This document shows, piece by piece, positions 1 through 6,735 of a DNA stretch of 64,000 nt (positions are counted from its first letter, which is position 1; every line of letters begins with the position of its first letter). The DNA is from a virus: positions 1 to 64,000 of IMG/VR virus record IMGVR_UViG_3300044641_003190. One strand, given 5' to 3'. Under the pieces are notes generated by a model. That model had not been told where the DNA came from and did no database searches. It saw only the letters and a program-made list of their open reading frames with translations. A program made the position numbers and the translations under genes.

Positions 1-68
1 ACGTCTGAGATAGCAGACTTATTTGGAACGTGTGATTTACACACTTGGATTATTACATTTGAGTTCAT
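1..68 (-). CDS. Microprotein, partial (continues off the left edge)
   Basis: Translated by hand: ATG at 68 behind SD AGAAAGGAG, reading MNSNVIIQVCKSHVPNKSAISD... with no stop inside the window. Confidence 0.7.
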   Translation of the reverse strand, partial: MNSNVIIQVCKSHVPNKSAISD

Positions 69-118
69 TAGAACTCCTTTCTAGTTTGAGAACCTTTCTC
101 AACTTTCTTTATACTAGA

Positions 119-140
119 AGTATAACACCTACCACTGACA
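119..140 (-). promoter_or_regulatory. PafBC/RecA-NDp-type promoter 1
   Basis: Minus strand reads TGTCAG-tggtaggtgt-TATACT (N10 spacer), upstream of the ORF at 68. Confidence 0.75.
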
Positions 141-180
141 TTTACTGACCAGTAACCATACCAAAACGGACATTTGGGAT

Positions 181-196
181 TGTGATAAACCTCACA
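181..196. promoter_or_regulatory. CRP/GlxR-type box
   Basis: TGTGA-taaacc-TCACA, perfect consensus. Confidence 0.7.
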
Positions 197-222
197 CGGA
201 TTTTTCACGCTCAAATTTTCCA

Positions 223-238
223 GGTGATTAATCTCACA
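223..238. promoter_or_regulatory. CRP/GlxR-type box
   Basis: GGTGA-ttaatc-TCACA, one mismatch, 42 bp from the previous box. Confidence 0.6.
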
Positions 239-245
239 TCTTAAA

Positions 246-283
246 CGACACGCCCGACAGAGGCGCCTCGCTCGGGCGTGTCG
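246..283. repeat. 38-bp GC-rich palindrome with GACAC motifs
   Basis: CGACACGCCCGA-ca-GAGGCGCCTC-gc-TCGGGCGTGTCG. Confidence 0.85.
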
Positions 284-311
284 CCACGCCGTTGCGAGTT
301 AATTTAATTTA

Positions 312-503
312 TTAAAAATTAAACTCTAAAGAATTTGCGCCAGTTGCTTTTGCAAATCTCTCTGGGTCAAATCTCGGATTATCTTTTTCAAACATTTCAG
401 AAAACTCATCTACCAAATCGTTAAATATTGCGGGATGAATTTCATCCGAATATTGTTTTAAAATGTTAGCAGTTTCCTGATAATCTTTTCTAGTCATTGT
501 CAT
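312..503 (-). CDS. Hypothetical microprotein (MTRKDY...DNPRFDPERF type)
   Basis: ORF track, AGGAG SD, TAATG coupling to the upstream ORF. Confidence 0.8.
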   Translation of the reverse strand: MTMTRKDYQETANILKQYSDEIHPAIFNDLVDEFSEMFEKDNPRFDPERFAKATGANSLEFNF

Positions 504-673
504 TATTTAATTCTCCTTAAAAATCTAGGAGTTTTAATTGGATACTTTTTAAAATATCTAATTGCATAAATTAAAACTGCGGCGGTGATAGCAAAGCCCC
601 AAGTAAAATCAAAGCCTGCCCAAGGTGAGTAAAAACCTAAGCCCCACTCATTTATTTCGATTGTTATTTCCAT
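503..673 (-). CDS. 56-aa membrane microprotein (not in ORF track)
   Basis: MEITIEINEWGLGFYSPWAGFDFTWGFAITAAVLIYAIRYFKKYPIKTPRFLRRIK; SD GAAAGGA; hydrophobic stretch followed by a basic tail; TAATG overlap at 503. Confidence 0.75.
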   Translation of the reverse strand: MEITIEINEWGLGFYSPWAGFDFTWGFAITAAVLIYAIRYFKKYPIKTPRFLRRIK

Positions 674-698
674 TAGTTAGTTTTCCTTTCGTAGTTTA

Positions 699-720
699 AT
701 TCTATCGGTTAGCCCTGACA
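699..720 (-). promoter_or_regulatory. PafBC/RecA-NDp-type promoter 2
   Basis: TGTCAG-ggctaaccga-TAGAAT; a TTGACA also lies 18 nt upstream of the -10. Confidence 0.7.
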
Positions 721-724
721 ATTG

Positions 725-865
725 TCAAGACCTCCAAACATATCCAACAAGGTCACAAGTGCGACCCTCTAGAGTTTGCTTACAGTTTGAGTAAATCGGA
801 TCGGTTAGAATATCAAAGGACACAATACCCGAGCAGATGAGAAGGGAAGCGATTATAGATTTCAT
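725..865 (-). CDS. 46-aa microprotein with hydrophobic N-terminus (not in ORF track)
   Basis: MKSIIASLLICSGIVSFDILTDPIYSNCKQTLEGRTCDLVGYVWRS; TAATG overlap at 865. Confidence 0.65.
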   Translation of the reverse strand: MKSIIASLLICSGIVSFDILTDPIYSNCKQTLEGRTCDLVGYVWRS

Positions 866-1053
866 TATTGCTTTCTCCCCATGATAGAGCCACCAATAGC
901 CAAGACATCACAAGCAAAGCTAACCTTAGTGCCTTTACTTAATCGGTTAGGTAATTCTTCTATGAATAACCTTACAGCGTTTTTATTGGCTAGGCTAATA
1001 TTCATTACCTCACCGCTATAAGTTTCTAATCTAACTTGGTATCCTGATTTCAT
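865..1053 (-). CDS. Hypothetical microprotein
   Basis: ORF track; TAATG-coupled on both sides. Confidence 0.75.
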   Translation of the reverse strand: MKSGYQVRLETYSGEVMNISLANKNAVRLFIEELPNRLSKGTKVSFACDVLAIGGSIMGRKQ

Positions 1054-1214
1054 TATTTATTATCCTGTTCTATCTTATGGACTAAGTATTCAAACTTAAT
1101 AGGTGGATTAACTGAGTTTAACTCGTCTATAGTCTTAACTATATCTTTAATACTATTAGAGGTTAATGTACCTTTTTGCAAAGAGCCTTGCCAAATTGAG
1201 TAAGTTAGTTTCAT
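1053..1214 (-). CDS. 53-aa microprotein (not in ORF track)
   Basis: MKLTYSIWQGSLQKGTLTSNSIKDIVKTIDELNSVNPPIKFEYLVHKIEQDNK; SD GAGGAG; TAATG overlap at 1053. Confidence 0.75.
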   Translation of the reverse strand: MKLTYSIWQGSLQKGTLTSNSIKDIVKTIDELNSVNPPIKFEYLVHKIEQDNK

Positions 1215-1343
1215 TTAGTTATTCTCCTCTACATTAAAGTTATTGGTTAAAGCATTGTTTGCCTTAGTTAGGGCAAGGATAGCGTCCCTTAGACTTTTGG
1301 CTCTTTCAGCCTCTATCATTTCTTTATATTGTTGTATATTCAT
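1215..1343 (-). CDS. 42-aa helical microprotein (not in ORF track)
   Basis: MNIQQYKEMIEAERAKSLRDAILALTKANNALTNNFNVEENN; SD AGAAAGGA; abuts the next ORF. Confidence 0.7.
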   Translation of the reverse strand: MNIQQYKEMIEAERAKSLRDAILALTKANNALTNNFNVEENN

Positions 1344-1385
1344 TTAGTTTATCCTTTCTAGATAACTTTCATTTTGTTGTCTGTA

Positions 1386-1407
1386 AGACTATCAGACTTG
1401 ACCGACA
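1386..1407 (-). promoter_or_regulatory. PafBC/RecA-NDp-type promoter 3
   Basis: TGTCGG-tcaagtctga-TAGTCT. Confidence 0.75.
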
Positions 1408-1435
1408 TTATCAAGCCGACACGCATGGCGTGGGG

Positions 1436-1451
1436 TGTGATTTAGTTCACA
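1436..1451. promoter_or_regulatory. CRP/GlxR-type box
   Basis: TGTGA-tttagt-TCACA, perfect; overlaps the stop of ORF 1442-1642. Confidence 0.7.
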
Positions 1452-1642
1452 CGATTAGCGATAAGCCATTGGCTTTCGCTAGGGCTTAGGTATTTATGAG
1501 ATACGCAACCCTCTTTAGTAGAGAGTAACTCTAGATAAGCCTTACGGCTTATGTAGTTACCTACACTATTGCGAAACACTAGGCTATTGCCTGTGTTACT
1601 AGTAGCCATTGGGTGGCTAGCATCTATAATCATTTGAGACAT
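1442..1642 (-). CDS. Hypothetical microprotein
   Basis: ORF track, SD AGAAAGGAG. Confidence 0.75.
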   Translation of the reverse strand: MSQMIIDASHPMATSNTGNSLVFRNSVGNYISRKAYLELLSTKEGCVSHKYLSPSESQWLIANRVN

Positions 1643-1693
1643 TTTGTCTCCTTTCTAGTTTAAGGACTTTCCTTAACTTTCTTTATACATAGT

Positions 1694-1715
1694 ATTCTAG
1701 CAGAGGGTACTGACA
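1694..1715 (-). promoter_or_regulatory. PafBC/RecA-NDp-type promoter 4
   Basis: TGTCAG-taccctctgc-TAGAAT. Confidence 0.75.
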
Positions 1716-1753
1716 TTTTGGGGTGTTTTTCGGGCGTGTCGGGAAATTATTTT

Positions 1754-1769
1754 TGTGAGTTACATCACA
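1754..1769. promoter_or_regulatory. CRP/GlxR-type box
   Basis: TGTGA-gttaca-TCACA, perfect. Confidence 0.7.
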
Positions 1770-1826
1770 TAGGGGGGTATTACTGAGTAGTATGTCCGAT
1801 TTGTGCCCATTATATGTGCTCGCTAT

Positions 1827-1842
1827 TCGAACATGTGTTCGG
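1827..1842. promoter_or_regulatory. Actinobacterial LexA (SOS) box
   Basis: TCGAAC-ATGT-GTTCGG versus consensus TCGAAC-N4-GTTCGA. Confidence 0.65.
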
Positions 1843-1909
1843 TCTCAAAATAGTGCATCATACAAATTAAAAATTTATTAACATTTTGGGTATTTTAGAT
1901 CGGGAAGGG

Positions 1910-1939
1910 TTGACATAAAATTTACCTTGCTGTTATACT
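1910..1939 (+). promoter_or_regulatory. Sigma70-type promoter
   Basis: TTGACA-18 nt-TATACT with extended TG. Confidence 0.7.
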
Positions 1940-1942
1940 GGA

Positions 1943-2076
1943 GGAAAGGTTTTTGGGGGTTTACACTAAGACTCAATACACCAAGTAATTCTTGGGAGTT
2001 TAGTGAAGCTTCTCTCTTCTCACCATAAGAATTTAATTTATGGGGGGAGGGGGGGTTTTGCTAAAATCTAATTCCC
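1943..2076 (+). ncRNA. Candidate structured ncRNA (multi-stem, rich in G-U pairs)
   Basis: Directly downstream of a promoter, no ORF; three stems fold by hand on the + strand only. Confidence 0.5.
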
Positions 2077-2225
2077 AAGTATAAGTATAGAATACAAGAT
2101 AGAAAAGATAAAGCTTTAATATAATAAATACCTATATATGTTACTCATCAGTAACATAGTACTATATATATAAACAGGGCATATCATAGATAGACATACT
2201 TTGATCCATATGATACTATGGATAT

Positions 2226-2390
2226 ATGGAAGCAATAATCGTATATATATGTATAGCTATAGCTATTACTTTGATAGAGACTTTTGACTCACTTAGGGAT
2301 AAAGGTTATAACCCGTCCGCCATCGATAGAGATCATGATGGATGGATCCAAGAAGGAACTAAATGGGAAAGACGCTCCCGCCGACTTTAA
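2226..2390 (+). CDS. 54-aa membrane-anchored microprotein with a DxDxDG loop (not in ORF track)
   Basis: MEAIIVYICIAIAITLIETFDSLRDKGYNPSAIDRDHDGWIQEGTKWERRSRRL; TG-a-TACTAT lies 6 nt before the ATG. Confidence 0.7.
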   Translation: MEAIIVYICIAIAITLIETFDSLRDKGYNPSAIDRDHDGWIQEGTKWERRSRRL

Positions 2391-2589
2391 AATGTAATTA
2401 TTGCGATAATAACGCATATACTTCAAAATTAAACTCTAGAGGAATAATTATAGGGTACTGTCATCCATGTTTCGAAATTCACTACTGGGTGTCCACATTA
2501 TGAGAAATTTGTTAATAATGGTAGCTTCTCTATATCTAGTCTTCTGCCTGCTATTGCTTATCTAATATCCAGTATGGTATTCTGAATAT

Positions 2590-3216
2590 ATGAAAAAAGA
2601 AGAAGTAGATTTACTTATCCTTACACCAGGCCATGGCGCAAAATCTGGCTACGTGAGATCCCTTGTTAAAACTCTAGATGCCTTGAATGAGGCCAATATT
2701 TCTTATGCTTATTATATGAGAGCTTCCTCCCATGTTTCAGTAGCTAGACAAAAAACACTAGACCACGCAATGGATGACTATATGTTCAGATACAAGAAGA
2801 TGCTTTGGATAGACTCAGATATCGAGTGGGAACCTGAAGATGTATTTAAACTTTATAATTCAAAAGAGAAAATTATATCTGGAGCCTACCTATCATCTGA
2901 TGGGTATGTAGCTGCTTCCGAGACAGAGGTATTTGCTCAAAGATTTCACTACGATGACTTTTTGAAAAAGACTGGCGTAATAGAAGCAAAGAGAATAGGT
3001 TTTGGTTTTGTTATGATATCCAAGGGTGTGTTTGAGTCCATTAAAAGACCTTACTGGGAAAAGCATAAAAGTGAAGATTGGATAACTGGAGAAGACATAG
3101 CTTTTTGCGAGAATGCCTATGAGGCGGATCATAAAATTTATTTAGATACTAGTGTTAAAGTTAATCACTATAAAACAACAGTTCTTACATGGCATGGTTG
3201 GCAAAGTCCAGCATAA
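2590..3216 (+). CDS. Glycosyltransferase, GT-A fold
   Basis: WIDSDI DxD motif, GFGFVMI, GEDIAFC, VNHYK; paralog of 25746-26420. Confidence 0.75.
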   Translation: MKKEEVDLLILTPGHGAKSGYVRSLVKTLDALNEANISYAYYMRASSHVSVARQKTLDHAMDDYMFRYKKMLWIDSDIEWEPEDVFKLYNSKEKIISGAYLSSDGYVAASETEVFAQRFHYDDFLKKTGVIEAKRIGFGFVMISKGVFESIKRPYWEKHKSEDWITGEDIAFCENAYEADHKIYLDTSVKVNHYKTTVLTWHGWQSPA

Positions 3217-6087: not shown

Positions 6088-6088
6088 G

Positions 6089-6159
6089 AGCGAGTGACCA
6101 GAATCGAACTGGCACTATCTGCTTGGAAGGCAGAGACACTACCATTATGTAACACTCGC
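6089..6159 (-). tRNA. tRNA-Gly(TCC)
   Basis: GCGAGTG/CACTCGC acceptor stem, TCTGC-CTTCCAA-GCAGA anticodon arm, GTTCGATTC T-loop; CCA not encoded. Confidence 0.95.
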
Positions 6160-6172
6160 AGTTTAATTTATA

Positions 6173-6358
6173 TTAGTAGTCTTCGTCTAATGAATCAATT
6201 TCGCCATTTTGGTCAACTTCTTCAAATGTGACATCAAGGACTTCTGTGTTTTCAGCAGATCCAATAAGGTCAAAAGAGTCAACAACGGCTTGAATATTAT
6301 CATATTTGTTTATATCAACCTCTAGGCTAATATTTACAAAATATTTACTCATTTTCAT
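6173..6358 (-). CDS. Acidic hypothetical protein
   Basis: ORF track; overlapping operon. Confidence 0.7.
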   Translation of the reverse strand: MKMSKYFVNISLEVDINKYDNIQAVVDSFDLIGSAENTEVLDVTFEEVDQNGEIDSLDEDY

Positions 6359-6530
6359 CCTCCACTAGTGACGGGGCTGGCGTTAGTATCTTTCCTTGCT
6401 CATGAAGATCTCTTATCTCTAAGGCCTCTTCACCTTTTCCTACACCATCCGCTATTATCATAAGCATATCATAAACTCTGGAAAGCTGTATATAAATTCC
6501 TAAAAGTATATTATCGTTTTCTTCAGACAT
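6345..6530 (-). CDS. Hypothetical protein
   Basis: ORF track; overlapping operon. Confidence 0.7.
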   Translation of the reverse strand: MSEENDNILLGIYIQLSRVYDMLMIIADGVGKGEEALEIRDLHEQGKILTPAPSLVEDENE

Positions 6531-6735
6531 TTAGTTCTCTTTTCATTGTTTCGTAGGTATGTAGACCAACGTATGTTTTTTCATTGCACTCTAGGCATAT
6601 TAAATAAACACCGTTATCATCAAATCCAGATATAAGCTTAGTTGTACACTCTGCCCCATGACGAAATCCATCTCTATTATCAAGCCACTGCCTGACAACT
6701 CTAATGTCTATAGTTCCAGTTGTTTCTAAGTCCAT
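6523..6735 (-). CDS. Small putative zinc-ribbon protein
   Basis: HGAEC...CLEC; leaderless promoter TTGACA-17-TACAGT 6 nt before the ATG. Confidence 0.65.
   Translation of the reverse strand: MDLETTGTIDIRVVRQWLDNRDGFRHGAECTTKLISGFDDNGVYLICLECNEKTYVGLHTYETMKRELNV

Follow-up and report, generated by a model that had tools for sequence, protein, structure and literature searches.

Predicted PafBC-type promoter cassettes with a conserved two-hairpin leader precede tiny genes in an uncultured lake phage

Organization of the region

IMGVR_UViG_3300044641_003190 is a linear viral contig of IMG/VR with 74,534 bases, a G+C content of 37% and an estimated completeness of ~60%. The window analyzed here comprises bases 1–64,000 of this contig. 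The region of interest, positions 1–2160, sits at the contig end; the window begins at contig base 1. It contains four leftward promoters whose core matches the consensus of the PafBC-dependent promoters of Actinobacteria, and it probably represents the proximal end of a longer array of early-gene cassettes, in which every cassette comprises a promoter, a conserved leader with two hairpins, and either a single tiny gene or several. An earlier note on this DNA had pointed to a stack of motif classes around eight tiny open reading frames (ORFs) of 42–66 aa, the first of which is cut by the edge. This description is borne out, since the ORFs have homologues and the motifs could be located and are not chance occurrences. 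Contig-wide counts of these motif classes also agree with its remark that no comparable stack lies elsewhere.

The region holds eight small genes, all leftward, of which seven are complete and the eighth is cut by the contig end. From right to left, a divergent control region (1643–2225) is followed by the 66-aa gene (1642..1442, minus strand), a short gap with a promoter, and the 42-aa (1343..1215), 53-aa (1214..1053), 62-aa (1053..865) and 46-aa (865..725) genes. A promoter lies across the start of the 46-aa gene, and next come the 56-aa gene (673..503), which encodes a hydrophobic product, the 63-aa gene (503..312), a hairpin, a second control region (68–240) and the cut gene (67..1), all genes being on the minus strand. 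Of the latter gene, which encodes a CxxH...CxxC protein of 58–60 aa in relatives, 22 codons are visible. Full-length protein homologues of all seven complete ORFs exist in related contigs, with identity down to 31–50%, which indicates that they are real genes; homologues of the 66-aa and 63-aa products occur in 27 and 52 loci, respectively. Searches with the microproteins against Pfam and PHROGs matched no family of known function, and the AlphaFold model of the CxxH...CxxC protein (23 homologues) has a pLDDT (predicted local distance difference test score) of 45, which makes the fold unusable. In one relative (L034, ~6357–6560, corresponding to 1494–1594 of the window), a deletion of ~100 bp cuts the 66-aa gene to 18 codons and leaves the promoter and leader intact.

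The hairpin (245–283, minus strand) is G+C-rich, with arms CGACACGCCCGA and TCGGGCGTGTCG, and starts ~30 nt past the stop of the 63-aa gene. With a folding energy of −31.6 kcal/mol (z = −4.3), it is predicted to be a terminator-like cassette boundary ahead of the next promoter, PA.

Core promoters

PafBC-dependent promoters are described by the motif tGTCgg(N10)tA(N3)T, in which the element occupies −23 to −28, the GTC is invariant and no −35 is present (PMC8635444); an older form of the site is tTGTCRgtg-8nt-TAnnnT (PMC5656591). All four leftward promoters in 1–2160 match the PafBC/RecA-NDp consensus TGTCRG-N10-TAnnnT. PA (119..140, minus strand) consists of TGTCAG (140–135), N10 and the −10 TATACT (124–119), with a TGn extended −10 and no −35; it also reads ATGTCAGTG, 8 nt, TATACT and thus fits the older form. 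PB (1694..1715, minus strand) is likewise built from TGTCAG (1715–1710), N10 and TAGAAT (1699–1694) without a −35. The other two promoters are hybrids. PC (1386..1415, minus strand) has TTGATA (1415–1410) at a spacing of 17 nt in addition to TGTCGG (1407–1402), N10 and TAGTCT (1391–1386), and PD (699..728, minus strand) has TTGACA (728–723) at 18 nt in addition to TGTCAG (720–715), N10 and TAGAAT (704–699). A GTC-containing element at −28 to −23 is therefore present in all four promoters (TGTCAG in PA, PB and PD, TGTCGG in PC), and its distance to the TAnnnT −10 is exactly 10 bp in 4/4 window promoters and in all 87 matches from related contigs. The −35-like hexamers of PC and PD are a departure from the PafBC class, which expects none.

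The pattern TGTCNG-N10-TANNNT has 10 matches in the whole contig compared with 3.4 expected, and five of the matches are on the minus strand within 119–1715. The four credible co-oriented promoters fall within 1.6 kb. The fifth match (259–238) was rejected as a chance occurrence because it overlaps an arm of the terminator hairpin and is not conserved.

The core thus shares with PafBC-dependent promoters of Mycobacterium and other Actinobacteria (RecA-NDp, recA P1-type) the GTC element at −28 to −23, the 10-bp distance and the TAnnnT −10, as well as the lack of a −35 in PA and PB. The differences are that these promoters belong to a phage and are arrayed in tandem, with tiny genes without known function behind them instead of DNA-repair genes, that the fifth base of the element is preferentially A and not G, that two of them have a −35, and that CRP-type boxes and a conserved leader are added. 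Their dependence on PafBC is a prediction.

A two-hairpin leader

The transcribed leader begins with an invariant 12-nt block, which is followed by hairpin 1, the Shine-Dalgarno region ACUAGAAAGG and hairpin 2. In leader A (61–114, minus strand), the invariant 5´ block spans 114–103, hairpin 1 spans 102–86, the purine-rich Shine-Dalgarno sequence is exposed, and hairpin 2 (76–61) encloses the start codon (67–65). Leader B (1636–1688, minus strand) has the same design with compensated stem changes, its hairpins 1 and 2 being located at 1676–1660 and 1650–1636.

Hairpin 1 occurs in six stem variants, each of which has seven Watson-Crick pairs without a mismatch and the loop A(A/G)G. Pairing is kept in 210/210 cells, with double changes in five of the seven pairs, a result that none of 500 shuffles reached. 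In hairpin 2, the bases just past the Shine-Dalgarno sequence pair with the G of AUG and codons 2–3, whichever gene follows; stems of at least 4 bp form in 26 of 28 distinct sites, and the mean stem of 4.86 bp exceeds the 2.91 ± 0.19 bp obtained with permuted partners. Because the sequence varies while the pairing is kept, it is the leader structure itself that is under selection. The hairpins most likely act as RNA hairpins, but they may have a role at the DNA level, as G-U pairs are absent and just six haplotypes occur. A covarying two-hairpin leader of this kind would offer a compact natural expression element for actinobacteria.

Upstream boxes

Four GTGA-N6-TCAC sites are present in the whole 74.5-kb contig, and all of them lie at 181–1769. 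Three are perfect TGTGA-N6-TCACA boxes, at 181–196 (centered at about −76 from the predicted PA start), 1436–1451 (about −64.5 from the PC start) and 1754–1769 (about −74.5 from the PB start); the fourth, at 223–238, has a single mismatch and is a second CRP-like box near PA, centered at about −118. The centers of the perfect boxes, at about −64.5, −74.5 and −76.5, compare with activating positions of about −61.5, −71.5 and so on, and the predicted starts are uncertain by 1–3 bp. The perfect TGTGA-N6-TCACA boxes, which lie close to −64 or −75, two positions separated by about one helical turn, and whose arms are conserved while the spacers vary freely, resemble those of class I promoters activated by CRP or GlxR. 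Here the box is paired with a PafBC-type core, a combination of which we know of no description. In relatives its left arm is frequently degenerate (CATGA) and joined to a DnaA box, and the binding protein is putative.

A single perfect copy of the LexA-type box CGAAC-N4-GTTCG is found at 1828–1841, within the wider sequence TTCGAACATGTGTTCGG at 1826–1842. Its arms are invariant and its spacer is variable in four relatives, and it fits a TCGAAC-N4-GTTCGA-type palindrome. The order of this box upstream of PB is the same as in mycobacterial recA, in which a distal LexA-dependent promoter precedes a proximal PafBC-dependent one (PMC8635444, PMC5656591). When the region is aligned with relatives of 87–91% identity, neither the CRP-type nor the LexA-type palindromes change in their arms, while the spacers differ, as seen for the CRP-type box at 1436–1451; in such an alignment, invariant arms with variable spacers are the signature of protein-binding sites.

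The remaining boxes follow a recurrent grammar, which was derived from 54 non-redundant related upstream regions. ATGTCCG, located at 167–173 (minus strand) as an upstream element of PA at −61, is the most enriched upstream 7-mer (27/54 compared with 0.2 expected) and stands at −61 or −52. Its reading as an additional −26 element paired with a −10 of its own was rejected, because a TAnnnT is missing at N10. The starts of CRP-like boxes are at −84, −82, −77 or −72, and further copies are found near −126. The 'GACAC' class is represented by the CGGGCGTGTCGGG box at 1731–1743, which has the CRP box on one side and the PB −26 element on the other; GACAC belongs to a longer box, CGGGCGTGTCG, all three copies of which are in 1–2160, and in related regions GCGTGTC is found in sense orientation at −45 or in antisense orientation at −53 and −43. 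As bare words, GACAC and ATGTCCG are barely enriched in the window. TTACT-N4-AGTAA at 142–155 abuts the −26 element of PA (−43 to −30) and takes the same position in 7/54 related promoters, in which TTACT-N4-AGTA is found at −43. A second exact site (2141–2154) is part of a palindrome with 8-bp arms (2137–2156) that is invariant in relatives. Sites with one mismatch lie at 1515–1528, inside the 66-aa ORF, and at 1780–1793; outside the region, just one more site comes within one mismatch, at 67862.

The position of TTACT-N4-AGTAA bears on an alternative explanation, in which the promoters are ordinary extended −10 housekeeping promoters, and TGTCAG and the palindromes are operators through which a phage or host repressor shuts the early block off. 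TTACT-N4-AGTAA covers the −35 zone, a typical repressor position, TGn precedes the −10 in all promoters, −35-like hexamers are present in PC and PD, and TTGACA and TGTCAG are jointly palindromic in several relatives. However, the element is asymmetric in most promoters and always lies N10 from the −10 in a single orientation, which fits a reader linked to RNA polymerase better than an operator. We consider the repressor explanation improbable.

The cassette in related phages

A search of IMG/VR with the 38-nt leader retrieved 45 contigs, and a looser pattern retrieved 82 contigs with 96 instances. TGTCNG-N10-TAnnnT is kept in 87 of the 96 leader-linked promoters; the other nine have TTGACT-17-TATACT with the same −10 and leader. 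The gene starts behind this leader are of at least 10 different kinds, and cassettes combine hairpin variants, promoter types and downstream gene families in reassorted ways. Because the same unit precedes unrelated genes, the promoter-leader is probably a point of shuffling. In the closest relative (L051), which is 87% identical in DNA, the array comprises 11 promoters over 7.5 kb. The array of this relative runs on, and that of the window is thus truncated by the contig edge.

Three near-complete relatives, of 116.6, 112.4 and 104.5 kb, were compared with the window phage. Each of them has 9–11 co-oriented PafBC-type sites in one small-gene block of ~10 kb, and nearly all of their GTGA-N6-TCAC boxes are in or beside this block. 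Their capsid and portal proteins are just 38–52% identical to those of the window phage, whereas the leader is almost identical. As judged from these comparisons and from phage TunaTartare, a closer but cultured relative without such an array, the cassette follows habitat or host and not phage phylogeny.

Neither a WYL domain nor a CRP-family protein was found in the window contig or the three near-complete relatives, which makes host proteins the simplest readers of the sites. It is conceivable that the −26 element is instead read by a phage-encoded adaptor, as MotA/AsiA does at the middle promoters of T4, and that the block belongs to a middle class, which a phage product made earlier turns on. 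The nine TTGACT-type cassettes would suit this scheme, since they stand mostly ahead of one small Cys-rich family, which may be an immediate-early factor; most block ORFs match no known family, and the paper on PafBC itself draws the MotA/AsiA parallel (PMC8635444). However, the element fits the host consensus in the invariant triplet and the exact spacing, the near-complete relatives have no WYL-domain protein, and no candidate adaptor was identified. The adaptor is an unlikely explanation, to which we still give some weight.

The sites could also be binding targets in their own right. The earlier note had offered, as one option, a decoy or sponge that titrates host regulators during genome replication; these regulators would be PafBC, CRP and LexA, with transcription being secondary. 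By inference, ~10 PafBC-type sites and 4–10 CRP-type boxes per genome would outnumber the host sites after replication. However, this per-genome count is modest, every site has the orientation, −10 partner, leader, ribosome-binding site and start codon of a working promoter, and the N10 spacing and covarying leader hairpins would be superfluous for a sponge. The strict orientation, the N10 distance and the downstream leader and start codon are properties of promoters and not of bare binding sites, and we regard a sponge as very improbable. The other option, a logic board for DNA damage, cAMP and cell-cycle signals, fared better in part. The DNA is organized as regulatory DNA, with sites at a fixed distance to the −10 that are aimed at a ribosome-binding site and gene; the motifs are also conserved in related phages, a point on which the note had let its proposal depend. 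DNA-damage inputs (PafBC- and LexA-type) and a CRP-type input are plausible. The cell-cycle input falls away: 1–2400 contains no DnaA box (TTATCCACA / TTGTCCACA) within one mismatch, and no triplet or pair of MraZ-type GTG(G/T) boxes 6 nt apart.

Perfect DnaA boxes (TTATCCACA) fused to a CRP-like left arm were observed in the relatives G001 (94330–94967), G002 (10924) and G003 (90458–90499), corresponding to loci L075, L077 and L087; they form duplicated units ~41 bp apart, upstream of the first cassette. The window has lost these fused boxes and has perfect TGTGA arms instead.

Source phage and host

The source is an uncultured lake phage related to the Streptomyces phages of the family Stanwilliamsviridae. 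Its capsid protein is 63% identical to those of Streptomyces phages of this family, and the portal and ribonucleotide reductase are ~60% identical to those of phage TunaTartare. The gene order is also that of Stanwilliamsviridae phages, in which leftward small genes are followed by rightward genes for glycosyltransferase, reductase, portal, protease, capsid and tail. A search of cultured-phage DNA with 1–2300 gave no match.

DUF932 and GP88 genes, both of which are frequent in actinophages, are among the genes of the promoter block, and the near-complete relatives encode WhiB, the use of which as an actinobacterial marker has been described (PMC10914622). Together with the capsid identity to Streptomyces phages, these genes point to a host in the actinobacterial phylum. 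When a genome collection was scanned with the phage WhiB, only small phage contigs were retrieved: WhiB-encoding contigs of this phage group (L089 and L090) that are binned in a Saccharibacteria metagenome-assembled genome (MAG) and a Lake Mendota Flavobacterium MAG. These contigs are probably misbinned and unfit for host assignment.

To the right of the leftward genes, a strong, near-consensus sigma-70-type promoter (1910–1939, plus strand) reads TTGACA, 18 nt, TGtTATACT. It is followed by ~140–200 nt without an ORF, which are nearly invariant in close relatives and contain a candidate non-coding RNA (1946–2085, plus strand). The predicted fold of the candidate RNA is a long hairpin rich in G-U pairs (−48.2 kcal/mol, z = −5.6), with one compensatory pair. 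Besides the window, it was found only in six closely related contigs, and no Rfam family matched the region 1–3000. The second rightward ORF past the divergent region (2363–2503, plus strand) encodes 46 aa with two CxxC pairs and a weak, sub-threshold match to DUF6757. The window also has a single tRNA-Gly(TCC) gene (6088–6159, minus strand); cultured relatives have ~30 tRNAs.

Similarity to known systems

The layout resembles that of the promoter-early stem-loop (PeSL) cassettes of T4-like phages, which likewise repeat a short, conserved unit made of a promoter plus a stem-loop among small variable ORFs, ahead of unrelated genes. The likeness suggests modular shuffling, which in the present case is deduced from the reassortment of cassette parts. 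The two systems differ in sequence, phage group, host phylum and promoter type, and the stem-loops described here are located in the 5´ leader and show compensatory changes.

In the Streptomyces phage StarPlatinum, a syntenic leftward small-gene array fills the 12.2-kb direct terminal repeat (genes 1–26 = genes 271–296). As in the window phage, many small genes, each with its own promoter, lie beside a rightward block of glycosyltransferase, ribonucleotide reductase, portal and capsid. The repeated unit of StarPlatinum (L132, 1–12200) and of L133 was also inspected: ~25 small genes each follow three elements, namely a hairpin rich in G+C, the box GCCGCCCCGG...AAAAGATC and a promoter of the form TTGC(A)-17-TAGACT. 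To our knowledge, this cassette has not been described. Further terminal-repeat arrays of early genes in large phages are the host-takeover module of SPO1 and the pre-early region of T5. A literature search found no paper that describes phage promoters of the kind reported here.

Proposed mechanism and implications

We propose, with moderate confidence, that the region 1–2160 consists of regulated early promoter cassettes that use host PafBC and receive CRP-type and LexA-type inputs. In the proposed mechanism, host RNA polymerase with the housekeeping sigma factor would need host PafBC, activated by single-stranded DNA, at these promoters, so that infection or DNA damage would turn the block on. 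Modulation would come from a host protein of the CRP/GlxR type, bound another one or two helical turns upstream, at about −64 and −75, and LexA would add an SOS input upstream of cassette B. The leader would hold the Shine-Dalgarno sequence exposed between its two hairpins, and the promoter and leader probably double as a recombination point for the shuffling of cassettes.

Several observations weigh against this proposal. PC and PD, given their good −35 hexamers, could be independent of any activator, and the TGn extended −10 that all four promoters carry is possibly sufficient alone. At its fifth base, the element has A, whereas G is favored in mycobacterial sites; A is still within the R of the older consensus. 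The LexA-type box overlaps no conserved promoter; it covers the −35 zone of a leftward TATAAT (1815–1810), and this −10 is absent or shifted in relatives. TunaTartare, the closest cultured relative by core genes, has no such array (the PafBC-type pattern gives 2 matches compared with 4 expected), and the left 30 kb of StarPlatinum contains 1 match. Because TunaTartare lacks the array, and the syntenic cassettes of StarPlatinum have ordinary −35/−10 promoters (TTGC(A)-17-TAGACT) together with another kind of upstream box, the PafBC-type array is neither ancestral to the family nor shared by all of its members. A reader encoded by the phage is possible, given that many phage ORFs lack a known fold. 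The presence of PafBC and CRP in the host is an assumption, and binding, start sites and timing are predictions from the sequence.

PafBC runs most of the actinobacterial DNA-damage response and is poised in the cell, awaiting single-stranded DNA. A wider scenario, which we put forward tentatively, is that an entire clade of abundant freshwater actinophages rebuilt its early, host-takeover promoters as copies of the host 'sigma adaptation' promoters of PafBC and combined them with CRP-type and LexA-type sites. The single-stranded DNA alarm of the host would then serve as the ignition switch of infection, gated by the cAMP and SOS state, and the mobile promoter-leader cassette would spread between phages with capsids ~40% identical. 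The cassette is short and highly conserved and suits existing PafBC reporter and in vitro systems. If the scenario is true, these promoters would form the first class of phage promoters that relies on sigma adaptation. The wiring of ~10 early promoters to PafBC would represent a new way to time infection, in which the phage borrows the host alarm and needs no sigma factor or polymerase of its own, and the lysis of abundant lake actinobacteria would be tied to DNA damage, for example by sunlight, and to nutrient state.

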